The notes under the pieces were generated by a model. It was given only the letters and a program-made list of their open reading frames with translations, had not been told where the DNA came from and did no database searches. From Candidatus Micrarchaeia archaeon (lineage in GTDB: Archaea; Micrarchaeota; Micrarchaeia; CAILAH01), in NCBI GenBank assembly GCA_049970015.1, contig JBMFNT010000002.1, forward strand, positions 1-58,116: a stretch of 58,116 bases of DNA. Direction: 5' to 3'. Positions 362 through 47,410 of the stretch are shown here, one piece after another. Position 1 is the stretch's first letter; every line of letters starts with the position of its first letter. A program made the position numbers and the translations under genes.

Positions 362-1735
362 ATGCTCAGCGAAAAGAAAGAGGAGTGTGGCATAGTTGGC
401 ATCTATTCTAAGAATCGCAAGAATATTTCTTATCATATTTACAGATCACTGCTTGCTTTACAGCATCGTGGCCAGGATGCAGCGGGCATTGCTCTAACTA
501 ATGGAAGAGTGGCGTTTGTTCATAAGGGCATAGGTACTGTGAACGAGGTGTTCAAGCACAATGATCTTCTTGTGGAGGGGTATATTGGTATTGGGCATAC
601 CCGCTATTCAACGACTGGTGGGTATTCACAGCTTGATGCGCAACCTTCACAAGTGCGTGACATTGCAGTAGCACATAACGGCCACATAGCAAATCAGGAT
701 ATTGTGAGGCGGATGCTTGAGCGTTTTGGGTATATTTTTACGAGCACAGTTGATTCTGAGACCATAGCATACCTTCTTGACAGCGTTCTGAGGGAAGGTG
801 CAAGCATAAAATATGCAATCATGAACCTTATGGATACTCTCGATGGGGCCTATTCAGATGTTGCAATAATTGGCAGTGCACTGGTTGTGTTCAGGGATCC
901 GCATGCCATACGCCCGCTTGTATGGGGCGAGAATGACGATTACATATGTTTTGCTTCTGAGAGTGTAGCGCTTGACATAAACGGCATTGAGTATAAGGGC
1001 ACTGTTAAAGGTGGAGAGCTTGTTATAGTTAATGAGGGTGGTATGCATAGGGAGATGATAAAGGAGGCAGAAACCCGCCATTGTATGTTTGAGTATGTGT
1101 ACTTTTCACGGCCTGATTCCTGTATAAATGATAGATATGTTTATGAGGTTAGGGAAAAATTAGGCGAGCAGCTTGCAAGAGAGTACCCTACTAATGCAGA
1201 TGTAGTTGTTGCAGTGCCAGACACTTCCAGGACAGCCGCATCAGCATTCTCCAGTTCTCTTGGTATACCTCTTGTGGAAGGTTTGATAAAGAATAGGTAT
1301 ATTGGCAGAACATTCATAATGCAAACACATGATGACAGGTGTAGTGCAGTATCCCTAAAGCTTAATGTTATAAGAAAACTGCTTGAGAATAGGAGAGTTG
1401 TGCTTATTGATGATTCGATTGTGCGCGGTACAACTCTTAAAGAAATAATCTCTCTTATAAGAAAGGCATTACCCAAAGAGGTTCACCTTAGGATAACATG
1501 CCCACCTATACGCGCCCCTTGTTTCTATGGCATAAACATTCCCACATACAAGGAGCTGATTGCGCATAACAGATCAATTGATGAGTTACGCAAATATTTT
1601 GGTGCCGATAGCATTGGCTACATATCAATGGATGGCCTAAAAGAAGTGCTTGGCAGTGATATATGCACGGGATGTCTGGATTGCAACTATCCTACACGGT
1701 ACGTGATGGAGCTTGCAAAGGTAGATCGTTGTTAA
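362..1735 (+). CDS. purF: Amidophosphoribosyltransferase (glutamine PRPP amidotransferase)
   Basis: Short propeptide then CGIVGIYS (Ntn nucleophile Cys), GHTRYSTTG, and the PRPP loop VLIDDSIVRGTT. The ATG at 362 is preferred over the TTG at 350. Confidence 0.93.
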   Translation: MLSEKKEECGIVGIYSKNRKNISYHIYRSLLALQHRGQDAAGIALTNGRVAFVHKGIGTVNEVFKHNDLLVEGYIGIGHTRYSTTGGYSQLDAQPSQVRDIAVAHNGHIANQDIVRRMLERFGYIFTSTVDSETIAYLLDSVLREGASIKYAIMNLMDTLDGAYSDVAIIGSALVVFRDPHAIRPLVWGENDDYICFASESVALDINGIEYKGTVKGGELVIVNEGGMHREMIKEAETRHCMFEYVYFSRPDSCINDRYVYEVREKLGEQLAREYPTNADVVVAVPDTSRTAASAFSSSLGIPLVEGLIKNRYIGRTFIMQTHDDRCSAVSLKLNVIRKLLENRRVVLIDDSIVRGTTLKEIISLIRKALPKEVHLRITCPPIRAPCFYGINIPTYKELIAHNRSIDELRKYFGADSIGYISMDGLKEVLGSDICTGCLDCNYPTRYVMELAKVDRC

Positions 1736-1981: not shown

Positions 1982-3091
1982 ATGACAAGATTTGTCGTTA
2001 TTTTATTGCTGCTGTTACCACTTTTTTATTCCGCTAGCATAGATTGTGTCCCAAGATCTTTTTCAAGCAATTCATTAGTTGCTGAGAAGTTCTGCAATAA
2101 CTACATTGGTAGCGATTGCAGGTGCTGGATTAACAATGCCTATGTAATATGCAGCTTTGACTTCAAGGACAAAATCACAGTAGCTTGCATTGGTGATAGC
2201 TGTACTATTAAAGTGCTTGATGAGAATAAGAGCATAGATTATGTTCCACTACAACTCTCTCTTGTTGGTTTGATGTGTGACAGAATAACAGGGGCAAAAT
2301 GTGATTGTGAGAGTATAAGTTCTGACACTGTTGAGTGTGAGATAAAAAATGTACGAGCAAAATCATTGTGTGATGATACTGGATGTACTATGTATATAGG
2401 TGAATTGAGTCATGAGAGCAAATACTGTGCGAAAGAAGAATCAGGGGTGCTTTTTGAGAAGGTAAGCAATGGTCTGGCTTTGAGCATTGAAGGTACAGTA
2501 GTGTCAGAGGATGGGGGAAGAAAGAAGCTTGATAATGGAATTATTTCCATATCAGGTCCTCTCAAGAGGGGCATAGAGGTTGAGATGGTTGCTGACATAG
2601 GATATGTTGATGAGAATTCTAGCCTCGCTGCAATACGCTCTGAAGTCAAAGAGGAGGCCAGAAATCTTTTCAGGAAAACAATCCGTGAACAGTATGGTAC
2701 GGAGGATTTTGAGACTATAGAGGCAATTGAAGTTAATCTTTCGAACCTTCGAGATGGAGAACACATAAAATCAGCAGTTGTTAGGTTTAAGGTACCTAAG
2801 ACCATTATCAAGGAAGGCACAGTTGTAGTTATACTTAGATATGATGATGAGGGAAGGGTATCTGTTTTAACACCTTCGGTCAGAGAGGACGATGCCCACT
2901 ATATATATGAAGTTAGCACGGATGGCCTTAGCCTTTATGCAGTTGCAACAATCAACCAGATCACTGGGTCGGTTGCTGAGGATCAATTGGGAGAAGAGAG
3001 TGCAAGTAAAAGGCAGGGAGAGATATGCGGTGTAGTGGGAGCAATCTTGCTGTTGCTTGGTGCTCTTTATACAGTTAACGAGAGTACATAA
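1982..3091 (+). CDS. Secreted/anchored Cys-rich protein, unknown function
   Basis: N-terminal signal-like hydrophobic segment, many Cys in the first 150 aa, and a C-terminal hydrophobic anchor (GVVGAILLLLGALY). Confidence 0.6.
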   Translation: MTRFVVILLLLLPLFYSASIDCVPRSFSSNSLVAEKFCNNYIGSDCRCWINNAYVICSFDFKDKITVACIGDSCTIKVLDENKSIDYVPLQLSLVGLMCDRITGAKCDCESISSDTVECEIKNVRAKSLCDDTGCTMYIGELSHESKYCAKEESGVLFEKVSNGLALSIEGTVVSEDGGRKKLDNGIISISGPLKRGIEVEMVADIGYVDENSSLAAIRSEVKEEARNLFRKTIREQYGTEDFETIEAIEVNLSNLRDGEHIKSAVVRFKVPKTIIKEGTVVVILRYDDEGRVSVLTPSVREDDAHYIYEVSTDGLSLYAVATINQITGSVAEDQLGEESASKRQGEICGVVGAILLLLGALYTVNEST

Positions 3092-3606
3092 AACACATAT
3101 ATGAACCATAGGATAAGGGCAATTCCTTCAATAGCATACCTTTTCATATCATTTTTTCTTCCCTCCACCACGCTACCGGATGCTATTGCAAGGAGTACAA
3201 TAAAATAGTAAGTTGGTATTAGAGTGGCACTCGCTGCCCAGAGTACACTGCTTACTCCAAAAGGTAATCCCACCAGGTGCAATAGAAACAGAATAATACT
3301 ATTTACGATAAAAGCAATACTGGTTATGTATATGAGCCCAACACTTATTTGCACAAAAGATTTTTTAGCTACTTGTGAGGCAATGAACCCAACAATGCTG
3401 TTTATAGATATTATCGATATACCATTTATTAATAGGTTGATAAGGTAGTTCAAGTACGAAAATTTTGTTGGTAAGGATATTATTATAAGAGCAATAAAAG
3501 ATACAATTGCTGATTTTATCACACTCACATTAATTATTTTGTTTCGCAGGTCCCTTTTTGATGCGAGAAATGCATACACATACTCTTTTATCCATTTCAT
3601 TAACAT
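3067..3606 (-). CDS. Multi-pass membrane protein, unknown function
   Basis: Several hydrophobic helices. Its start overlaps the cyclase stop by 7 nt. Confidence 0.55.
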   Translation of the reverse strand: MLMKWIKEYVYAFLASKRDLRNKIINVSVIKSAIVSFIALIIISLPTKFSYLNYLINLLINGISIISINSIVGFIASQVAKKSFVQISVGLIYITSIAFIVNSIILFLLHLVGLPFGVSSVLWAASATLIPTYYFIVLLAIASGSVVEGRKNDMKRYAIEGIALILWFIYVFYVLSLTV

Positions 3607-4517
3607 TCCACCCGGTACACTTTTATTGGGATGCTCTTCCCTTTTACAGCCACTTCCTCAGGTTCTGAAAACCTGAATTTACCTTTCACAAGCTCATATG
3701 TACTCTCGCTTACGACAATCTCTCCACTCTTTGCCACACCATTGAGCCGAGAAGCTATGTTTACAGTATCCCCTATCACAGTGTAATCCATATATCTATA
3801 CGACCCAATGTTTCCCATAACAACTTCTCCAGTGTTCACCCCTATTCCGATTGAGAAATTATTAACCCCATACTTTTTCTTCACCATACGCGCATACTCT
3901 CTCATCCTGTTTTGTATTTTTACACATGCTTTTATTGCACATACTGCATGATTCTCTTTTTGTACAGGTGCATTAAAAACAGCCATTGTAGCATCGCCTA
4001 TATACTTTAACACAGTCCCATCCTCGTTGAATATCTCTTCAGTTATTATATCAAAGTGCCCATTAAGCAATTCAACAATCTGTTTTGGGTCCAGTTTTTC
4101 AGAGAGTGATGTAAACCCCCTCACATCTGTGAACACCACTGTTACTTGATGCTTTTCACCACCTAACTGCAGGTCTTTCTGCTCAAGCAGTTTTTCAACA
4201 ATATTTTCTGACACATACTTAGAGAAGAACTGTTTTGTCTTTATCTTTTCCTTTTCTTCTTTTACCCTTCTACCTTCTACATACATTATCACTATTATTA
4301 TTGCAATAGGCATGACACTTGTTATTATCCTAAACTGCTCTATGAACTCCCTAAATATTTCGGAATACATGTTGAACCAGATGTTAAAGAATACGAGTAA
4401 CACCATAGCAGTCATTGCAATGTACTTAACATCATTCGTGTCAAGATACCTACAAATCATTTTTATGCTTATGTAAAGCAGAAGAAGTAATACTACGTTC
4501 TCAAGCATGCGATTCAC
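3600..4517 (-). CDS. Membrane-anchored class III adenylate/guanylate cyclase
   Basis: N-terminal TM helices followed by VVFTDVRGFTSLSE, YIGDATMAVFNAP, GVNTGEVVMGNIGS and DYTVIGDTVNIASRL. Confidence 0.85.
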   Translation of the reverse strand: MNRMLENVVLLLLLYISIKMICRYLDTNDVKYIAMTAMVLLVFFNIWFNMYSEIFREFIEQFRIITSVMPIAIIIVIMYVEGRRVKEEKEKIKTKQFFSKYVSENIVEKLLEQKDLQLGGEKHQVTVVFTDVRGFTSLSEKLDPKQIVELLNGHFDIITEEIFNEDGTVLKYIGDATMAVFNAPVQKENHAVCAIKACVKIQNRMREYARMVKKKYGVNNFSIGIGVNTGEVVMGNIGSYRYMDYTVIGDTVNIASRLNGVAKSGEIVVSESTYELVKGKFRFSEPEEVAVKGKSIPIKVYRVEC

Positions 4518-5892
4518 TTATTCTTCTAAGGTATTGCTGGTACCAGAGTGATTTCGCTATTGCGCTTATGGCAGATGACGGTGATCCATATGTCGGGAGG
4601 CCTGAAGACTCAACAATCTTGAGCAGCATTCGTGTATACTCCCCCCCAGTTGCAACTGATACTATAGTCTTATCAGTCATATTATCTGCTTCCATAACCA
4701 CTCTAATGACTTCAGGGCCCAACCCTACTGTTTGGAACAGCGTTATCACGACGATCGCATCTACACCTTCCTCTTTTATAATCTCAGTCAATACTTTCCT
4801 GTACCTTTCACTGTCTGCATCACCTGTCAGGTCAAGGGGATTGCCCACTACAACATGCCTTGGAAACATCCTTTTGAATTTTCTTATTGTTTTCTTGCTC
4901 AGCTGTGCAGGCCTAAGCCCATTTTTTTCGATTGCATCCATGGCAAGCACTCCATCTCCCCCACCATTCGTTATCACCATTATCCTGTCACCACGTGGAA
5001 GCGGTTGTAAGAACACTTTTAAAAGGTTGAACAATTCATCAAGATTTTCAGCCTCAACTGCACCTGCCTGTTTCAGCATCGAGCTGAATACTTTATAATC
5101 GCCTGCAAGCGCGCCAGTATGCGATTTTGCGGCCTCGGATGCAAGTCTTCCTTTACCTGCCTTGAGCACGACGACTGGTTTTATAGCAGTAGTGCTTTTA
5201 AGCACTTCATAAAACTTCCTTCCATCTTTAACCCCTTCGATATACACAACAATCACGCTTGTGTCAGGGTCATCTCTTAAATATTCCAGCAGGTCTGACT
5301 CATCAATCACTGTAGCATTGCCGTAAGATATAAATTTTGACACCCCTATGTTTGATTCTGCCACTAGATCAAGTATTGTTGAGCCGACCGCACCGCTTTG
5401 AGTTATGAAGCTAATTTTGCCTACTTGCGATCTTTTCATTTTGTATGTTGGCAGGAATGTGCTGTCAATATGTTTCTGCATATTTATTATACCGAGGCAG
5501 TTTGGGCCTATCGCAGCAATATTGTACTTTTTACATACCCTTACAAACTCCTCCTCCAGCTCTTTTTCTCCAACCTCTTTAAATCCTCCGGAGAGCACTA
5601 CTGCCCCACCAACCCCCTTCTTTCCACATTCCCTCAATACCTGGTTTACATAAGGTGCCGGCACAGCAATTATTGCACATTCAACATCCCCTTTTATGTC
5701 CAGCACGCTCTTGTAGCAATTTACACCAAGTATCTTTTCAGCGTTCGGATTAACGGCATATATCCTTCCATTGTACCCGCCCATCAGCAGGTTCTTAAGC
5801 ACAGCATTCCCGACCTTTGAAGGGTTTCTTGATGCGCCTACCACAGCAATGGTTTTTGGCTCAATGGCTTTTTTTAGGTCTAGTTTATCCAT
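4501..5892 (-). CDS. acdA: ADP-forming acetyl-CoA synthetase, alpha subunit (CoA-binding/succinyl-CoA synthetase-like)
   Basis: IAVVGASRNPSKVGN, GPNCLGI, and SHTGALAG (phosphohistidine loop). Confidence 0.88.
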   Translation of the reverse strand: MDKLDLKKAIEPKTIAVVGASRNPSKVGNAVLKNLLMGGYNGRIYAVNPNAEKILGVNCYKSVLDIKGDVECAIIAVPAPYVNQVLRECGKKGVGGAVVLSGGFKEVGEKELEEEFVRVCKKYNIAAIGPNCLGIINMQKHIDSTFLPTYKMKRSQVGKISFITQSGAVGSTILDLVAESNIGVSKFISYGNATVIDESDLLEYLRDDPDTSVIVVYIEGVKDGRKFYEVLKSTTAIKPVVVLKAGKGRLASEAAKSHTGALAGDYKVFSSMLKQAGAVEAENLDELFNLLKVFLQPLPRGDRIMVITNGGGDGVLAMDAIEKNGLRPAQLSKKTIRKFKRMFPRHVVVGNPLDLTGDADSERYRKVLTEIIKEEGVDAIVVITLFQTVGLGPEVIRVVMEADNMTDKTIVSVATGGEYTRMLLKIVESSGLPTYGSPSSAISAIAKSLWYQQYLRRISESHA

Positions 5893-26290: not shown

Positions 26291-28342
26291 ATGAATATTT
26301 TTAAGGTATTTTTCATGGCGTTTCTCCTATTTTCTTTGGTTTTTCCATACATCCCACAAAATGTTCTGCCAACGCAGATCTCTTGCATCAATACATCTTT
26401 CTCAAGGGAAGGTACATTAACAGTTTCTGCTGGTGAGATGCATAACATAATAGTTGAGTTGCTTGTACCACAACATTCAAAGAACCAGGAAGTATCACTT
26501 AACATTACTGATGCTGAAGAATTCTCTGACTCAGATGGGAACAGATGGGTACGTATCATGCATCCAGGTTATGAGAAAGTGTTCAATTTCAATATTGCAG
26601 GGAATGTATCCACTTGTGCAAACAAGGTGTATTATATTAATGAGACATATTCATTTGGCAGTGAGATGAATAAGTATCTTTCTGAAACAAAGCACATAAT
26701 CATTAATGATGCTATAAGACAGGAGGCAAGAAATATAACTTCCAGTCATAAAACTGACATTGATAGGATCGCCGCACTTGCCATATGGGTAAACGATTAT
26801 GTCAAGTATACTATACAAGATGTTGGAAAAAACAGGGATTCAGTATCTGTGTACAATGACCCACATGGCGTATGCACAGAATATACAAACTTATTCATTG
26901 CGTTATCCCGTTCGCTTGGGTACCCAACACGTGCAGTCATGGGGTACGCTTACTCCCCAGATTATGGATGGCAGCTACATTCCTGGGCAGAGGTATACTT
27001 AGGTGAATGGATAGGGGTTGACCCCACATGGCTTGAGGTTGGGTATATAGATGCAACGCATATCCCAATATATTTTAGTGAAGATACAGAGGTTGTAGAG
27101 CCTGCAAACACACAGGTCACTGACAAAGATGGAGTGCTGCAGTGGAAAAGCAAAGAAGAGTTTGGAGGGACATCTTCTGACATAACTGTTTTTGGCTATT
27201 CCTTGGACATACCGGAGTATAGCATTTTGCTTGCACCGGAAGATGTTGGGATTGGAGATGAAGGTGCAATTGTATTGAATCTGGACAGCGAAGATTACAG
27301 AATCATGAACATTATGGTGGCACCATGCCTCTCTGAAGGATTGCCAATGATGAAGGTCAAGCGCGAAAAGTTTGCAGTGCTTCTTCATCCTGGAAGAAAC
27401 AATATAATAATCCCCTATGAGGTCTCCCCATATCTTGACCCAAGGTACTCTTATGTTTGTCCTGTCTCGATAGCGCATAGTTTCGGGAGTGATGTCGTGC
27501 ACATAGCAGTAAACAGCAAGGCTGGGAAGTATACAAAGGTGTTTAATGCATTTGTTGCAAGGCATGGGGACAGGAACGCTACGGTACGTGTAGATTCATT
27601 TTATAGTGCTGACATAACATTTGTTGATGATAAGGGCACGTCTACTGCATATGTTCCAGCAGGTAAAGAGGTATTTTTTGACACATCTTTTGATGGGATC
27701 AGCAAGTATGTTGTAATTTACACAGATGGTTATGCACAATCCATCTTGCTTGAGCAGTCTTCAACTAATGATCAGCATTCTTACATATTAAGGGATTTTC
27801 ACATAACAAGCGCAGTACCTACAGATAGGAATGTAACCTTAGATATCTCTTTTGATGTAAACAGTGATGATCCTTACTTCTTTAAGTTGTATGTTGATGA
27901 TAAGCTTTTGTATTCTGAGAAATCAAATGACAAAATATACTCGCTAAATTATAGCTTTGACCCTGGCAGTGTTGGCAAACATAAGGTTCTTGCAATATTG
28001 GACACTGGATTTGATGAATATAAAGAAGAGGTTTACTATTCAGTTTTTAAACCAGAAATAACAATCGATAAATATGAAAACGAAACTTCATATGTTTTTG
28101 ACGTCAATGGACCGTATGCATCATACGAGTTTTATGTTGATGGAGAAAGGGTGGACCCTCATGTACAGAGAAATTTCACGGCCGGGTTTCACGAGATAAC
28201 TGTCAAATGGGTTGATCTTGCAGGGTATGAGCGAGTTCATACTGAGCGCTTTTATTCCGGAGAAGTAGGAAACAAAACGGTGTGCGCAGCCGTTCCAATT
28301 CTTATCATGTTAATATTAATTTTGTTTATATATAAGAGATGA
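26291..28342 (+). CDS. Anchored extracellular transglutaminase-like (cysteine protease fold) protein
   Basis: Signal peptide, then GVCTEYTNLFIALSRSLGYPTR...HSWAEVY...DPT (Cys-His-Asp), and a C-terminal TM segment. Confidence 0.8.
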   Translation: MNIFKVFFMAFLLFSLVFPYIPQNVLPTQISCINTSFSREGTLTVSAGEMHNIIVELLVPQHSKNQEVSLNITDAEEFSDSDGNRWVRIMHPGYEKVFNFNIAGNVSTCANKVYYINETYSFGSEMNKYLSETKHIIINDAIRQEARNITSSHKTDIDRIAALAIWVNDYVKYTIQDVGKNRDSVSVYNDPHGVCTEYTNLFIALSRSLGYPTRAVMGYAYSPDYGWQLHSWAEVYLGEWIGVDPTWLEVGYIDATHIPIYFSEDTEVVEPANTQVTDKDGVLQWKSKEEFGGTSSDITVFGYSLDIPEYSILLAPEDVGIGDEGAIVLNLDSEDYRIMNIMVAPCLSEGLPMMKVKREKFAVLLHPGRNNIIIPYEVSPYLDPRYSYVCPVSIAHSFGSDVVHIAVNSKAGKYTKVFNAFVARHGDRNATVRVDSFYSADITFVDDKGTSTAYVPAGKEVFFDTSFDGISKYVVIYTDGYAQSILLEQSSTNDQHSYILRDFHITSAVPTDRNVTLDISFDVNSDDPYFFKLYVDDKLLYSEKSNDKIYSLNYSFDPGSVGKHKVLAILDTGFDEYKEEVYYSVFKPEITIDKYENETSYVFDVNGPYASYEFYVDGERVDPHVQRNFTAGFHEITVKWVDLAGYERVHTERFYSGEVGNKTVCAAVPILIMLILILFIYKR

Positions 28343-28353
28343 GGTGTTGTTTC

Positions 28354-29790
28354 ATGACAAATATAAAATTGCTCAATAACCCAATGGGTACACCTACATA
28401 TGTGGAGTTTTGTTATTCTAAGGATAAAAAGCCAGTCTTGGAAGGCAGTCTGAAAAAGTATTCTGAGAATGCAACAGCAAAGGGTTTTGGGGCATCCCTT
28501 GGAGAATATTTTATAGTTAACGATGGGCTTATTTTAGTTGGTCTAGGTGAAAAAGGCAATTTTAAACCGCGTTTTATAAGAAAAGCAATCTTTTCCGCGC
28601 TCGGGTTTGTGAAGGCGCTTCGGATTGCCACGGTTGCCTTGATGTTAAAGCAGTTTGATGAGATTATTACTAAGAATGCCGTTTACTCCGCATACATGAC
28701 CGAGTATGAGTTTGATAAGTTTAGATCAAAAGAGGAGAAGAAGGAAAAAGGAAAGTTGGAACAAGTTCAACTGATTATTGATGAGAAGTTTAATCAGGCT
28801 ATGCGCGAGGTTGTTGAAGTATCTGAATCGATAAATTATGCACGTACTATTTGTAATACCCCTGCAAATGTGGCCTCCCCGCAATACATGGCAGAAGAGG
28901 CAAGAAAGCTTGCCAAGGAATGTTTATTGAAATGCTCAGTCTTAACAAAGAAAGATATGGAAAAGAAAGGGATGAACGCATTGCTTGCAGTTGCAGCTGG
29001 AAGCGCACGCGAGCCGGTGATGCCAATACTTGAATACTCTGCAAAGAACGCAAAGAAAACAATTGTTGTGGTTGGAAAAGGAATTACATTTGATAGTGGT
29101 GGTATCTCACTAAAGCCCAGTAAGGGTATGGATGAAATGAAGTTTGATAAGAGCGGTGCATGTGCAGTTCTTGGAATAATGCGCGCAGTATCAAAACTCA
29201 GACCAAACGTTAATGTAGTAGGGGTGCTTCCGTGCACAGATAACATGCCAAGCGGTTCTGCAACACGTCCTGGAGATATTGTAAAAGCATACAATGGAAA
29301 GACTATCGAGATACTTAACACTGATGCTGAAGGAAGGCTCATACTTGCAGATGCGATTGCGTATGCGGAGGATAAGTATAAGCCAGATTACATAATAGAT
29401 CTTGCAACGTTGACAGGTGCATGCATTGTTGCCCTAGGTGTTTATGCAATGGGTATGCTTTCAAACGATGACTCGTTTGCAAATACCTTTAAGGAAGCAA
29501 GCAACGCGAGCTTTGATGAACTGTGGCAGTTACCACTTTGGGATGAGTACAAAGATATGATGAAGAGTAAGGTTGCAGATATAAAGAATATATCAGATAC
29601 TGGCGAGGCAGGTACAATAACCGGTGCAGCGTTTATATCAAACTTTGTTTCAAAAGCAAAATGGGTGCACCTTGATATTGCAGGTACGGCACATAGATCA
29701 AAACCAGTGCCTCCATTCGATCACGGGGCCAGTGGTTCTGGCATATCAGTAGTAATAGAAGCAATAAAGATGATTGAAAAGGTAAAATAA
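28354..29790 (+). CDS. pepA: Leucyl aminopeptidase (M17)
   Basis: VGKGITFDSGG and NTDAEGRLILAD. The start could be 28339 instead. Confidence 0.9.
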   Translation: MTNIKLLNNPMGTPTYVEFCYSKDKKPVLEGSLKKYSENATAKGFGASLGEYFIVNDGLILVGLGEKGNFKPRFIRKAIFSALGFVKALRIATVALMLKQFDEIITKNAVYSAYMTEYEFDKFRSKEEKKEKGKLEQVQLIIDEKFNQAMREVVEVSESINYARTICNTPANVASPQYMAEEARKLAKECLLKCSVLTKKDMEKKGMNALLAVAAGSAREPVMPILEYSAKNAKKTIVVVGKGITFDSGGISLKPSKGMDEMKFDKSGACAVLGIMRAVSKLRPNVNVVGVLPCTDNMPSGSATRPGDIVKAYNGKTIEILNTDAEGRLILADAIAYAEDKYKPDYIIDLATLTGACIVALGVYAMGMLSNDDSFANTFKEASNASFDELWQLPLWDEYKDMMKSKVADIKNISDTGEAGTITGAAFISNFVSKAKWVHLDIAGTAHRSKPVPPFDHGASGSGISVVIEAIKMIEKVK

Positions 29791-29807: not shown

Positions 29808-30057
29808 GAGCGGCAAGCAGTAGTCTGCCTTCTGTTTTCAGCAGCATTTGTCTTAGCGCCATAATGGCTTGCACGTTCATTGCCTATAAGGATGGCCGTT
29901 TCATCCAGCGCATGCAGATGTCAGTTTTCTTCATTCCTTTTAGCAAGGCCGGTATCGTTTCTGTTCCGTCCTCTCCTATTACAGGAATATAGGCTCAGCG
30001 TGGGCAGAACTTCCTCAGCGCACCTTTTCTTTCTTGGGAAGAAAGAAAAGCTGCACC
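29808..30057 (-). ncRNA. rnpB: RNase P RNA, catalytic core (the 5' end may lie at ~30367; see findings)
   Basis: On the minus strand, in the canonical order: GAGGAAGUUCUGCCC (rc of 30002-30016, CR-I), ACAGAAACGAUACCGGCC (29947-29964), GGAUGAAACGGCC (29894-29906), and ACAGAAGGCAGACUAC (29820-29835). AGUUCUGCC pairs with GGCAGACU leaving one bulged U, which is the geometry of helix P4. Confidence 0.7.
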
Positions 30058-30357
30058 AAAAGAAAGAACCTCTTCTTTTTGAGAAGAGTTGCACCGAAAA
30101 GAACCTCTTCTTTTTTAAGAAGAGCTGCACCAAAAGAAAGAACCTCTTCTTTTTGAGAAGAGTTGCACCGAAAAGAACCTCTTCTTTTTGAGAAGAGCTG
30201 CATCAAAAGAACCTCTTCTCTTAGTGCAAACTTCTTTTTTTAGAAGAGTTGCACCAAAAGAACCTCTTCTTTTTGAGAAGAGCTGTATCAAAAGAACCTC
30301 TTCTCTTAGTGCAAACTTCTTTCTTCTCTCAAGGAGAGGTGCACCGTCAGCTGCACG
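30018..30357 (-). repeat. Tandem array of ~9 hairpin modules (about 34 nt each, two of ~50 nt)
   Basis: The plus-strand unit is gaaccTCTTCTttttgAGAAGAg(t/c)tgcacc followed by an (g)aaaa spacer. Unit starts are about 30066, 30101, 30140, 30175, 30209, 30260 and 30294, plus the perfect 11-bp hairpin at 30025-30049. Higher-order repeats are 30051-30123 versus 30124-30196 and ~30197-30281 versus 30282-30345. Confidence 0.9.
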
Positions 30358-30388
30358 CCTGCCGCTCATTATAATTTTGATTGATATG

Positions 30389-30396
30389 TATAAATA
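30389..30396. promoter_or_regulatory. Shared near-palindromic TATA box (tataaata) between the MFS gene and the putative RNase P RNA 5' end
   Basis: The centre (30392.5) is 25.5 nt from the MFS ATG (30418) and 25.5 nt from 30367. Confidence 0.45.
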
Positions 30397-30417: not shown

Positions 30418-31581
30418 ATGAGTTCCGATAAGATAGGTAAAAAAAGCGATGGCAAAAAAAGCGTTATACTCCTTAGCATTACAAGTTTTATAAATGATGT
30501 AAGCAGTGAGATGATTCTTCCTATATTGCCATTTTTTCTTGCATCATTTGGTATTACTCCAGTATTCATAGGCCTTGTTGGTGGCGTGAGGGATTCTTTA
30601 TCAAGCTTGCTAAAAGTGTTCTCTGGATATCTTTCTGACAGGATTGGCAAGAGAATGCCTTTCATTTATACTGGTTATTTCATATCTTCAGTATTCAAAG
30701 TGCTGCTTGCATTTTCTCCAACATGGCTGTTTGCCATCATATTTTCATCGCTTGAGAGGATTGGAAAGGGAGTGAGAGATGCTCCTCGTGATGCACTTAT
30801 AGGAAGTCTTATGCCGGAAAGAACAGGGGAAGGGTTTGGGATACAACGCTCGCTCGATACTGCAGGTGCATTTATTGGTACAATTCTCATAATACTACTC
30901 TTTTACTACTTTGGCTTTGAACTGTTTTCAATAATACTGCTTGCAGGGTTTATAGGCCTTCTTTCACTTATCCCACTCTTGTTTGTTAGGGAGGAAAAAT
31001 ACGACAAGGTCACAAGAGGGATGTTTTTTTCAATAAAGAATATTCCGAAAGAGGCAAAAATGCTTATATTGGTGGCATCAGTGTTTACCTTAGCAAATTT
31101 CAGTTATATGTTTTTTATTATGAAAGCGCAGGTCGAAACCGGAAGTCTTATTTATCCTGTGCTCTTGTACCTGTTGTATAACTTATTTTATGCACTCTCC
31201 GCATACCCTTTGGGAACGTTTGCTGACATAATCGGCAAGAAAAAGACCCTGGCTTTGGGTTATTTCATGTTTTCATTTGTCATGTTTGGCATGATATATG
31301 CACATGATATTTTCTCACTTACAGTATTGTTTGTTTTGTATGGTATATCTGTGGGAATAGTTGAAACAATCCATAAAGCATATGTATATGACCTCTCTAG
31401 CAAGGATACTAAAGGTGTTTCGGCAGGAGTGTTTCAAGCATCTATTGGCATAATGGCACTTCCTGCAAGCATAATAGCAGGAGGCCTTTGGGAGATTTCC
31501 CCAGGTTATGCTTTTACCCTTGCAGGCATTTTCTCACTGTGTGCATTGATATTTCTTGCATTCATTAATCGGAAACAATAA
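30418..31581 (+). CDS. MFS transporter
   Basis: About 12 hydrophobic helices and an MFS loop motif, GYLSDRIGKR. Confidence 0.8.
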   Translation: MSSDKIGKKSDGKKSVILLSITSFINDVSSEMILPILPFFLASFGITPVFIGLVGGVRDSLSSLLKVFSGYLSDRIGKRMPFIYTGYFISSVFKVLLAFSPTWLFAIIFSSLERIGKGVRDAPRDALIGSLMPERTGEGFGIQRSLDTAGAFIGTILIILLFYYFGFELFSIILLAGFIGLLSLIPLLFVREEKYDKVTRGMFFSIKNIPKEAKMLILVASVFTLANFSYMFFIMKAQVETGSLIYPVLLYLLYNLFYALSAYPLGTFADIIGKKKTLALGYFMFSFVMFGMIYAHDIFSLTVLFVLYGISVGIVETIHKAYVYDLSSKDTKGVSAGVFQASIGIMALPASIIAGGLWEISPGYAFTLAGIFSLCALIFLAFINRKQ

Positions 31582-32602
31582 GCGAGGCTGCTTTTTTATT
31601 ACCCATACTTTTGTGTGCTATTCTTGATAAGAGCGCAACCCTTTCTTTGATAAATGTGCTCAGAGCAATCTCTATGCCCATTTCAACATTCTCTTGGCAT
31701 ATCCACCTTGGGTCAAGCATAATCCCAGCACCTATTCTTTCAACACCTTTTGCATTGTTAATACGCTCAGTATAATTTTTTGTAGGTATACATATTACAG
31801 GCGTTCCTGCACTTATGGATGACATTATCGTAGTGTGCCCACCATGTGTTATGATTGCGCGAGATCTCGATATTGCTTTTTCAGCATCTTTTCTGCAGAG
31901 TTGGCCATCACCAACCACAGCGTCATATCCGATTTTGTTAACCCATTTCTGCAATCTATCGCTTCTTACAGTATTCTTAACACTGCTGCCACCCATGCTT
32001 ATGAAAATCATATCCTTCTTTTTTGCTGGAGTGAGCAGAGCAGTTGGGCCAACGTGTGTGAATTTTGTTGGACTAAAATAAAGCAAGTTATGGGCAGATA
32101 CAGTAAATGGCGGGCTAAAATCTGGTATTAGTACCATGTTTGATAACTCTACCGCGGTTCTTGACAGGAAATTTGCCCCCTTTTCTATGTACTCGTTAGT
32201 TTTTGGGAACACATACCAAAGGTTTGTGCAGTTTGCAATGTTAATCACCCTTTTTCTTAACATGCGGCCTACAAAAAGCCCAAGAATATATCCATCAACG
32301 ACCAGCACATCTGGTTTTGTTGCAAGTATTATATCAGTTATTTTCTTTATTGCCAGCGGATGAAACCGTTTTATGTTTTGCCACAAGCTTTTACTTATAT
32401 TAACACTATCCTTGGTTGTAAATATCTCTCCTATTTCTGGAAGCGTATATACATTTTCATACCCCTCCTCAATAATAACTTCATAAGGCCTTCCGAACGA
32501 TGAGATGCTGACCTCACAATTGTTTTTAAGTTGGTCTACGATTGGAAGAGACCTGTAAACATGCCCAAGCCCAAACCCATTTATCATAAAATGTACTCTC
32601 AT
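31565..32602 (-). CDS. GT-B glycosyltransferase (MurG/UGT-like)
   Basis: C-terminal HGGHTTIMSSISAGTPVICIP nucleotide-sugar binding motif. Confidence 0.7.
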   Translation of the reverse strand: MRVHFMINGFGLGHVYRSLPIVDQLKNNCEVSISSFGRPYEVIIEEGYENVYTLPEIGEIFTTKDSVNISKSLWQNIKRFHPLAIKKITDIILATKPDVLVVDGYILGLFVGRMLRKRVINIANCTNLWYVFPKTNEYIEKGANFLSRTAVELSNMVLIPDFSPPFTVSAHNLLYFSPTKFTHVGPTALLTPAKKKDMIFISMGGSSVKNTVRSDRLQKWVNKIGYDAVVGDGQLCRKDAEKAISRSRAIITHGGHTTIMSSISAGTPVICIPTKNYTERINNAKGVERIGAGIMLDPRWICQENVEMGIEIALSTFIKERVALLSRIAHKSMGNKKAASLIVSD

Positions 32603-32609
32603 TTTAAGT

Positions 32610-33638
32610 TCACCTTACCTTGAATCTTAGGAGTGCAACCACACCACCAAATGCATTTAACTGGAGTGCAACTTGACTTTCTTCTGGAACTATTAACACA
32701 CTACCACCCTTGCTTTTTACATTATCTATTAGCATTTCATAAGACTCATCAGACCTTACCAGAGAATCCACTATGATAAGTTTTTCTATGGCACCCATCT
32801 CACTGCATTTCTCAACCTCTTTTTTCCCATACGCGCTCAATCCATCTTCCTTACCAATGCTTTTAAGGAACGTTTCAATATCCCTTACTGCAGCGCGCAC
32901 CTGCTCTTCTTCCATGATGTCTCTTATCTCATCGCTCCTTATCACCTCATACACTCCGCTCTTCTCCGCGTTTGATGCACTTACAAGCAGTATCCTTTTA
33001 GCAGTGTCTGGAGATTCTTTTCTTGCAAAGTTGTAGAAGTTCTCTTTTGTAAACCCAGGCCCGCCCAAGATTATCTTTCCATCGATTCTTTTCATTTCGT
33101 TGAGCACTTCATGGAAATACCTGTCAGTTGGTATATTCTTGTCAACCTTTTTACCAGTATTCTCAATCTCAATTCCAAACTCAACACCATACATTCTTAT
33201 TGAGGCAAATGTTGCTTTCTCATCATCCATAACAATTATGTTGAGAATACTTCTTCTGCTTGCTTTTATTGCATTTTCCAATGCCTCGATCTCATAATCT
33301 TTCCACTCCTTTCTTATGCTAACTTCATCCCCTATACCTACATCAATCGTATGGTATGCACCTATGGGTGCAACATACTCTGGGCGTGCCTCAACTATTT
33401 TACCAGTTACTCTTATACTGTTTGAATACTTGCTCAAATCCACTTTCTCCGCCTCAAGTATAACATATATACTAATCCTTTCTTCCCTATTGCTTCCAGG
33501 CGGCTTATACTTTCTATTAGTCCTAGCACTTACGGTTGCACCTTTTGTTATGAGTTTGTAAACATTCCACACATCTTCGAACGTCTCAGGGACAACTGAC
33601 ACTATACCATCTTTCCTGTTTATCTTTGCACGCATCAT
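32610..33638 (-). CDS. pelA: Pelota (mRNA surveillance / ribosome rescue factor)
   Basis: eRF1-like three-domain protein; EDVWNVYKLI and GPGFTKE motifs. Confidence 0.88.
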   Translation of the reverse strand: MMRAKINRKDGIVSVVPETFEDVWNVYKLITKGATVSARTNRKYKPPGSNREERISIYVILEAEKVDLSKYSNSIRVTGKIVEARPEYVAPIGAYHTIDVGIGDEVSIRKEWKDYEIEALENAIKASRRSILNIIVMDDEKATFASIRMYGVEFGIEIENTGKKVDKNIPTDRYFHEVLNEMKRIDGKIILGGPGFTKENFYNFARKESPDTAKRILLVSASNAEKSGVYEVIRSDEIRDIMEEEQVRAAVRDIETFLKSIGKEDGLSAYGKKEVEKCSEMGAIEKLIIVDSLVRSDESYEMLIDNVKSKGGSVLIVPEESQVALQLNAFGGVVALLRFKVR

Positions 33639-46470: not shown

Positions 46471-47115
46471 ATGTCCCTTATAGCGGGCATTGATGAGGCT
46501 GGGCGCGGGTCAGTCCTCGGCCCGCTTTCCATTGCACTTGTTTGTGGTAATGAAGATGATTTTTTATCTATTGAGCTTACGGATTCTAAGCTCCTCACAC
46601 GCAAGGAGCGCGAATCACTTTACCCTGAAATAAGGAAGAAGTTTTACACATCTTTTATTCTTATAACTGCGAATGAGCTTAATGAGCTTATGAGAAGGTT
46701 TTCGCTCAATGAAATAGAGGCGATGAAGGCAGCATACTTGATTGAAGAGCTTCCGTTAAACCCATCACAGGTTTATGTAGACTCTCCAGACCCAATCGCA
46801 GAAAACTTTGGGCACAGGATTTTGAGGCATATGCAAAAAAATGTTTGTATAAATGCAGAGCATAAGGCAGACTTCAATTATCCTGTTGTGAGTGCAGCAT
46901 CTATAGTTGCAAAGGTTGTTAGGGATTGGGAGATCGACAGGATACGGGATGAACTAGGGTATGATTTTCTTTCTGGTTATCCATCTGATGAATCCACAGT
47001 TCTTGCAGTGAAAGAAATGTTAAGGACGGGCAAAGGAATAGAGTATGTAAGGATGCATTGGAGCACGGTTGAGAACATACTGTCTGAACAGAAGAAGCTG
47101 CATGACTATTTCTAG
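46471..47115 (+). CDS. rnhB: Ribonuclease HII
   Basis: GIDEAGRGSVLGPL, DSK, and SAASIVAK. Confidence 0.92.
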   Translation: MSLIAGIDEAGRGSVLGPLSIALVCGNEDDFLSIELTDSKLLTRKERESLYPEIRKKFYTSFILITANELNELMRRFSLNEIEAMKAAYLIEELPLNPSQVYVDSPDPIAENFGHRILRHMQKNVCINAEHKADFNYPVVSAASIVAKVVRDWEIDRIRDELGYDFLSGYPSDESTVLAVKEMLRTGKGIEYVRMHWSTVENILSEQKKLHDYF

Positions 47116-47139
47116 TTTTTGGTTGATGTTCATTTCCTT

Positions 47140-47410
47140 TCAATTATCCTGTTGTGAGTGCAGCATCTATAGTTGCAAAGGTTGTTAGGGATTGGGAGAT
47201 CGACAGGATACGGGATGAACTAGGGTATGATTTTCTTTCTGGTTATCCATCTGATGAATCCACAGTTCTTGCAGTGAAAGAAATGTTAAGGACGGGCAAA
47301 GGAATAGAGTATGTAAGGATGCATTGGAGCACGGTTGAGAACATACTGTCTGAACAGAAGAAGCTGCATGACTATTTCTAGTTTTCGGTTGATGTTCATT
47401 TCCTTTCAAT
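47140..47410 (+). pseudogene. Tandem duplicate of the rnhB 3' third, the intergenic spacer and the last 15 nt of the convergent DHH gene
   Basis: 47140-47410 repeats 46874-47144 at an offset of 266 nt with one mismatch (t/c near 47118/47384). The junction lies at a shared tcctttcaat. Confidence 0.92.

Follow-up and report, generated by a model that had tools for sequence, protein, structure and literature searches.

An array of tandem hairpins lies between the recognizable core of an RNase P RNA and a divergent MFS transporter gene in a Candidatus Micrarchaeia genome, and this locus raises the question of whether the hairpins belong to the RNA or lie outside it. Archaeal RNase P cleaves the 5′ leader from pre-tRNAs, its RNA acting together with the proteins Pop5, Rpp30, Rpp21, Rpp29 and L7Ae. 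The original prediction, made from the letters of a 58,116-nt stretch of DNA (the window; GCA_049970015.1), placed the array within the RNA as a giant expansion of P3, on the strength of a terminal helix and a TATA box shared with the MFS gene. We put at roughly 80% the probability that the locus is the genome's single RNase P RNA gene, transcribed through the array, with the repeats forming an arm at the P3 position. A second, compact RNase P RNA gene may exist elsewhere in the genome, of which 58 kb was covered.

Searched with Rfam at gathering threshold, the whole window gave no match at all. In E-value mode, the archaeal RNase P RNA family (RF00373) matched the minus strand at 29815–30031 with 60.7 bits (E 3e-16), which fails the curated gathering score of 84 bits; P3 was deleted in this alignment, and P1 and P2 were poorly paired. 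The P4 pseudoknot between CR-I (GAGGAA.., within GAGGAAGUUCUGCCC, 30016–30002) and CR-V (ACAGAAGG.., within ACAGAAGGCAGACUA, 29835–29821) was present on the same strand, to which all RNA features below also belong. Its 5′ strand (30003–30011) and 3′ strand (29822–29829) form eight pairs, 30011–30003 with 29829–29822, and include the bulged U. Alignment to the Rfam consensus located a specificity-domain core at 29896–29964 with ACAGAAACGA (29964–29955) and GAUGAAACGG (29905–29896), two segments around P10–P12 that are invariant in the clade alignment. The gene is flanked by a convergent M17 leucyl aminopeptidase gene (28339–29790, plus strand), which served as the synteny anchor, and by the divergent MFS transporter gene (30418–31581, plus strand; Pfam MFS_1, E 2.5e-36). 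Related Micrarchaeia genomes keep the same order of aminopeptidase gene, RNA gene (minus strand) and divergent MFS gene. The public gene call for the aminopeptidase begins 5 codons after the start of the longest ORF.

The two ends of the RNA were located by helix search, alignment and covariation. The P1 3′ strand UGCUUGCCGCUC (29808–29819) starts one base past the CR-V/P4 3′ segment, as had been proposed, and pairs with GAGCGGCAGGCG (30356–30367). When recomputed, this terminal helix had the 12 contiguous pairs claimed for it, 10 Watson-Crick and 2 G-U, and its specificity for a minus-strand RNA was borne out, since both G-U positions become A-C mismatches on the plus strand. Of 20000 mononucleotide shuffles, 8 produced an equally good partner for the 3′ segment no more than 700 nt upstream, and in the sense of the minus-strand RNA such a partner occurs at a single place in the window. 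From 30367 to 29808 the RNA measures 560 nt, matching the ~560 nt proposed, and the terminal helix closes its unconstrained minimum-energy fold (z-score −6.9). All nine orthologues (9/9) start with GAGCGG..GCAGCU-N-AC and end with CCGCUC, and the window has the same ends at 30367 and 29808. Rather than being absent or unmatched in relatives, the GAGCGG... segment was present in every orthologue and complementary to the 3′ end, with compensatory changes.

Promoter geometry points to the same 5′ end. The TATA box TATAAATA (TATTTATA on the minus strand; 30389–30396, unstranded) lies at −29 to −22 from the GAGCGG start, and its centre is, as originally computed, 25.5 nt from both 30367 and the MFS ATG at 30418. 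Wherever the upstream sequence of an orthologue was read, a TATA-like box was present about −30 to −22 relative to the first G, which makes nine species with the window included. The proposal that the box is shared extended to five species, in which 51–54 nt separate the RNA 5′ end from the MFS ATG and the TATA box is central. We conclude that the TATA box probably serves the RNase P RNA and MFS genes alike, and this 51–54-nt layout around one central TATA box is a candidate for a compact, naturally bidirectional promoter in archaea. The MFS mRNA is assumed to be leaderless.

Covariation was scored for P1, P2, the outer P3 helix and P4 in the window and seven orthologues (MAFFT alignment A2; orthologue L134 was left out). 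P2, identified by alignment and covariation, pairs GCAGC (30350–30354) with GCUGC (29841–29845). The outer P3 helix, identified by covariation, has its 5′ strand CGGUGCACCU (30337–30346) right after the conserved GCAGCU-N-A junction and its 3′ strand AGGUGCGCUG at 30016–30025, the last G of which is the first base of CR-I. Standard pairs filled 93.4% of cells, compared with 30–53% when partners were slid by 1–3 columns; 19 pairs were changed on both sides, and none of 500 shuffles reached any of the observed covariation measures. The outer 8 pairs of the 12-bp P1 were 98% paired, with two positions changed on both sides, and the 5 bp of P2 were 93.5% paired. Columns of the outer P3 helix paired in all relatives, with 9 of its 10 pairs changed on both sides, and all P4 cells were paired in the 8 sequences. 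Comparison of the 12-bp helix across orthologous loci thus uncovered compensatory changes, some of them specific to the window. Pair 8 of P1, for example, is A-U in the window, U-A in five relatives and C-G in one, and two P4 pairs that are U-A in the window (one of them also in L096) are G-C and C-G in other relatives. These compensatory changes of the window's own in P1 and P4 indicate that GAGCGGCAGGCG is the true P1 5′ strand. Because the 5′ strands of P1, P2 and P3 all lie upstream of the array, the array occupies the P3 position. Together, the Rfam core match, the orthologue-conserved ends and the covariation support, at the level of sequence, the assignment of 29808–30367 on the minus strand to one archaeal RNase P RNA gene of a Candidatus Micrarchaeia (DPANN) genome, 560 nt long as assembled here.

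Transcription of this gene would start at or beside the G of GAGCGG (30367), from the TATA box ~25 nt upstream, cross the whole array and stop just past CCGCUC (29808). In the RNA sense, the longest U run in the array is 4, and there are six A runs of 5–7; with no U run of 5 or more, a minus-strand transcript of the array would contain no oligo-U terminator signal, whereas a plus-strand transcript would contain six. This A/U asymmetry is what minus-strand read-through would require; the 5′ end, the read-through and the retention of the array in the mature RNA are all inferred.

The P3 segment of the window (30346–30016) is 331 nt long, of which 311 nt (30026–30336) lie inside the outer helix. 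In relatives, P3 measures 13, 24, 25, 28, 68, 75, 78 and 119 nt and is always closed by the homologous outer helix, forming rods or branched arms. The distance from the 5′ end to CR-I is 351 nt in the window and 33–140 nt in seven orthologues, and the RNase P RNAs of orthologues are 265–400 nt long, so that the RNA of the window, as assembled, has roughly twice the length of its relatives and ~330 extra bases. The original prediction knew of no such insertion in an archaeal RNase P RNA. Expansion of P3 as such is not unprecedented, given the 68–119-nt expansions in relatives, but the window stands as the extreme, repeat-built case; the open literature searched yielded neither an archaeal RNase P RNA whose P3 is this large or which contains an internal array of tandem repeats, nor any description of an RNase P RNA in Micrarchaeota. 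A small hairpin between the P2 and P4 3′ strands, found in most relatives, is absent from the window and from L096.

The interior of the expansion is built from tandem modules of the form GGUGCA-(A/G)CUCUUCU-A(4-7)-AGAAGAG-GUUCUUUU, delimited by tandem repeats and a module table. Tandem Repeats Finder detected repeats with periods of 35, 74 and 85 nt over 30043–30322. The proposed ~340 nt and about 9 hairpin modules agree with the 331-nt P3 and the 10 modules found, a copy number that depends on the assembly. These ten modules, as assembled here, are 25–42 nt each and open with GGUGCA, GAUGCA, GAUACA or UUUGCA; the first and the last (30345, 30016) overlap the outer P3 helix. Six modules contain the CUCUUCU-A(4-7)-AGAAGAG hairpin, one with a shortened 3′ arm, and the first contains a small CUCUC/GAGAG hairpin. 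The terminal module (30016–30057), a 12-bp CUUUUCUUUCUU/AAGAAAGAAAAG hairpin with GGUGCA/UGCGCU flanks, could form an alternative local P3. It is the module most like the P3 of relatives, sharing GGUGCAGCUUU(U)CUUU with that of L004. No paired GA/GA motif of the K-turn or box C/D-like type was seen in the modules by eye. Matches of the array to other Rfam families (miRNA, PyrR and leader families) were far below thresholds and were set aside as generic hairpins.

The modules resemble the native P3 of the organism. The 14-nt pattern GGTGCARCTCTTCT, allowing up to 2 mismatches on the minus strand, occurred in 9 of the 10 modules, the native 5′ strand and the last hairpin among them. Since the modules are homologous to the native P3 strand, they point to tandem duplication and not to a foreign element. 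Judged from its letters, the array is a serial duplication of the organism's own P3 hairpin, in which the unit is itself a copy of the native P3 strand or hairpin, with GGUGCA, a pyrimidine run, an A-rich loop and a purine run. It probably arose by slippage or unequal recombination within the already expanded P3 of the clade. The locus shows how an expansion segment of a catalytic RNA is generated when a native hairpin is tandemly duplicated, with intermediate stages of expansion visible in relatives and apparent copy-number polymorphism within the species.

Folding energies left the placement of the array relative to the outer helix nearly balanced. When the outer P3 helix was enforced, the RNA folded into a long imperfect rod, 30346 to ~30296 with ~30075 to 30016, carrying apical hairpins (−124.0 kcal/mol). 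The free minimum of the full-length version (−127.5 kcal/mol) closed the last module locally without the outer P3 helix and paired UGCACC of the first module (30343–30338) with an internal GGUGCA (30095–30090). In two shorter strain variants, described below, the unconstrained minimum was the rod with the outer helix. The claim that the array is a P3 expansion therefore holds as to its P3 position, while a location strictly inside P3 and one just 5′ of a local P3 differ by 3.5 of ~127 kcal/mol. We favour the array being inside P3 because the outer helix is homologous in relatives; the folding energies do not decide. In the proposed structure, P1, P2, the outer P3 helix and P4 would join the ends of the array, so that a normal catalytic core forms, and the extra ~310 nt would project from the P3 position as a long branched arm.

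Array copy number was compared with two further assemblies of the species, in which the RNA gene and the sequence immediately around it match the window at 100% identity, the array excepted. The window (GCA_049970015.1) has the 331-nt P3 and 560-nt RNA; L001 (GCA_049972225.1) has 74 nt fewer, with a P3 of 257 nt and an RNA of 486 nt; and L002 (GCA_049699455.1) has 159 nt fewer, with a P3 of 172 nt and an RNA of 401 nt. The differences are whole repeat units and affect apical repeats only, within a copy-number-variable part at 30116–30274 (alignment A1), all of which is missing from L002 and of which L001 lacks 30116–30189. Over wider flanks of several kb, L001 and L002 differ from the window by 0.2–0.5%, which indicates that the three assemblies represent different populations. 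Two perfect tandem duplications are present elsewhere in the window, and for this reason the exact copy number of the array is not to be trusted. The length differences may reflect real polymorphism or collapse and expansion in short-read assembly. These results support the view that the gene encodes a genuine archaeal RNase P RNA whose P3 expansion segment is exceptionally large, made of tandem repeats and variable in copy number.

In published RNase P structures, P3 is a peripheral helix that points away from the active site. The array is probably a rapidly evolving and mostly neutral expansion segment, which the peripheral location of P3 allows the RNA to tolerate, and is presumably not a module on which catalysis depends. 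It is conceivable, if doubtful, that the arm is instead a working part of the RNA, whether as a multivalent protein scaffold, as a dimeriser or anchor, or as the joint of a two-piece RNA after removal of the apical repeats. If the arm were functional, copy number would be a fast-evolving tuning knob in an essential ribozyme of a reduced-genome symbiont.

Removal of the transcribed array is also unlikely on the evidence at hand. The array could be spliced out, for example as a bulge-helix-bulge intron, or excised without rejoining to leave a two-piece RNA, possibly held together by P1, P2 and the P3 rod in the manner of fragmented ribosomal RNAs. DPANN archaea are known to have split genes; two such pieces would be held together by long complementary arms at the foot of the array (30346 to ~30296 and ~30075 to 30016), and the variable copy number suggests that the apical part is dispensable. 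However, we found no convincing bulge-helix-bulge motif bracketing the array. Scanning for two 3-nt bulges separated by a 4-bp helix, with flanking helices, gave 170 hits, which are non-specific in a low-complexity repeat; the sole candidate near the array borders is flanked by 2 bp and 3 bp, and its use as a splice site would take away the P3 5′ strand and destroy P3. Furthermore, the 68–119-nt P3 expansions of relatives fold as ordinary closed arms.

There is very little room for a start of the RNA inside or just after the array (~30057–30031), with the repeats reduced to an intergenic element in or upstream of the promoter. Such a start would agree with the Rfam alignment, which spans only 29815–30031, and the A-rich hairpin loops (UUAAAAAA at ~30118–30111) are weakly TATA-like. 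Nevertheless, we reject it because the 5′ strands of P1, P2 and P3, which are conserved and covarying upstream of the array, would be lost. In the Rfam alignment of the short version itself, most of P1 and P2 is unpaired, the shortest strain variant lacks the TATA-like loops, and the conserved promoter geometry points to 30367.

Transcription from 30367 through an array of native origin also accounts better for the repeats than does insertion of a mobile element into P3, MITE-like or viral, or an artefact of assembly, either of which we regard as highly improbable. Assembly is difficult where tandem repeats exceed the read length, the three assemblies gave three lengths, and the perfect tandem duplications elsewhere in the window are what an artefact would lead one to expect. 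Still, the shortest of the three independent assemblies retains a 172-nt repeat-built P3. A foreign origin is countered by the homology of the modules both to the native P3 strand and to the P3 of relatives, and no copy of the module motif was found in the rest of the 58-kb window, the other 132 loci or the viral collection. Hardly credible, finally, is a small repetitive protein, although an ATG at 30369 opens an 84-aa ORF, public ORFs of 84, 124 and 71 aa run across the array on the minus strand and genes are called over it in both public assemblies, for neither the 84-aa nor the 124-aa ORF has a Pfam match, the strain indels (74 nt, not a multiple of 3, which breaks the frame, and 159 nt) yield called products that differ in length and start, and the ORF sits inside a covarying structured RNA gene.

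The RNA with a P3-position arm can be set against known systems. It shares with other Micrarchaeota RNase P RNAs (RF00373) the helices P1, P2, P3 and P4 with its bulged U, as well as CR-I, CR-V, ACAGAAACGA and GAUGAAACGG, and with the Micrarchaeota orthologues the gene order, the promoter geometry and both ends. It differs from them in a P3 of 331 nt, compared with 13–119 nt, that is built of tandem repeats, and in an Rfam score below gathering. The RNase P RNA of the eukaryote Candida glabrata has likewise been enlarged by peripheral insertions while keeping a conserved core, and those insertions are non-repetitive and occur at several sites, whereas the archaeal case involves one site and tandem duplication of a native hairpin. 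At 1149 nt (Kachouri et al. 2005, cited in PMC3001073), the Candida glabrata RNA is the largest RNase P RNA on record (PMC3001073).

Expansion at the distal end of P3 (ES3.1) is recognised, mainly in eukaryotes, and does not alter the core (PMC12974513, PMC3001073). The nuclear RNase P and MRP RNAs of eukaryotes have grown at the same place, distal P3, as the arm described here. ES3.1 forms a defined helix-internal loop-helix that binds Pop6/Pop7 (Rpp20/Rpp25); in contrast, the arm is far larger, repetitive and strain-variable, and its folds consist of a long imperfect rod and branched apical hairpins, with no internal loop conserved across relatives. In ribosomal RNA, too, a conserved catalytic RNA has acquired expansion segments that are peripheral, specific to lineages and fast to evolve, and such segments often grow from existing helices according to an accretion model (PMC12974513). 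The present case concerns another host RNA and differs from the ribosomal segments in its near-identical units and apparent within-species copy-number polymorphism. For archaeal RNase P RNAs, recent surveys stress reduction, not growth (PMC12974513).

A practical consequence concerns annotation. Orthologues with the same synteny scored 90–107 bits with RF00373, above the gathering score, while orthologues with a large P3, like the window, scored below it (L096, 72.4 bits; L128, 50.4 bits). Rfam scores fell as P3 grew (99.6, 90.1, 72.4, 60.7 and 50.4 bits). Because short-P3 orthologues score 90–107 bits, the sub-threshold score of the window tracks the size of P3 and does not signal loss of the core. 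The gathering threshold thus misses the gene in the window together with other expanded-P3 RNase P RNAs of Micrarchaeota, and the drop in score with P3 growth implies that standard annotation overlooks genes of this kind and lays spurious ORFs over them. Reported absences of RNase P RNA from DPANN genomes may therefore be artefacts in part.

Some loci added little to the orthologue set. No RNase P RNA was found between the aminopeptidase and MFS genes of L133, and the sequence of L132 ends 81 nt past the aminopeptidase gene. Scanning genome contigs for the pattern GAGGAAGKTCNNCCCACG returned at least 120 matches, most of those listed being chance matches in bacteria; among the matches listed were L008, L096 and RNase P RNAs of more distant Micrarchaeota and DPANN archaea. 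A tighter pattern scan of metagenomes returned 5 loci, two of which (L128 and L130) are real.

In the alignment of the RNase P RNA of the window with seven orthologues (columns 597-646), the P2 3′ strand and CR-V, the region of the P4 3′ strand, are separated in most relatives by a 15-50-nt hairpin, possibly P19. It is absent from the window RNA (29840-29836) and from that of Candidatus Burarchaeum (locus L096), and its absence in the window means that loss of a small helix is combined there with a giant P3. The Candidatus Burarchaeum RNA (L096 1213-1576, minus strand), which scores 72.4 bits with Rfam and so falls under the threshold, contains a hairpin-rich insertion of ∼57 nt within the P1 3′ strand, between UUGCCC and GGGCCGCUC, besides a P3 of 75 nt.

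The RNase P RNA of a further related genome (locus L130, about 711-997, minus strand) was noted together with ∼120 nt downstream of its 3′ end. The final ∼60 nt of this RNA (GCGAGCAU..GGCCAGCCGCUCUCCU) are repeated, with a few substitutions, ∼55 nt downstream of the gene. The repeat could have arisen by tandem duplication of part of the gene, or it could be a scar left by an element that integrated at the RNA 3′ end.

Public annotation places hypothetical proteins on the minus strand over the RNase P RNA, array included, in both shorter-array loci of the same species, one of 124 aa in GCA_049972225.1 (L001 5568-5942) and one of 71 aa in GCA_049699455.1 (L002 4696-4911), and their counterpart in the window is an 84-aa ORF (30115-30369, minus strand). 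None of the three ORFs has a Pfam match, and the reading frames over the array differ between these strains, with no conservation.

Elsewhere in the window we observed two tandem duplications, one of 217 nt × 2.0 at 100% identity (1538-1964) and one of 266 nt × 2.0 at 99% (46873-47410). Each begins within an ORF, in its 3′ portion (ORFs 350-1735 and 46471-47115, respectively), and extends beyond the stop codon. These duplications are either very recent events or assembly artefacts, and they call for caution about repeat copy numbers in the assembly of the window.

In one related lineage (L133), the aminopeptidase and MFS genes lie on the same strand, 24 nt apart (2946-2970); no RNase P RNA is found between them, and thus in that lineage either the RNA gene has relocated or the locus has undergone rearrangement. 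Unlike its relatives L006 and L134, which have an ankyrin-repeat gene between the aminopeptidase and RNase P RNA genes (4475-5017 and 3086-3511, respectively), the window has none there. The Pelota gene is one intact ORF of 342 aa in the window (32610-33638, minus strand) and is fragmented in L001 and L002 by a local duplication or rearrangement of ∼130 nt, as seen by comparing window 32600-32731 with L001 8296-8428 and L002 7275-7507.
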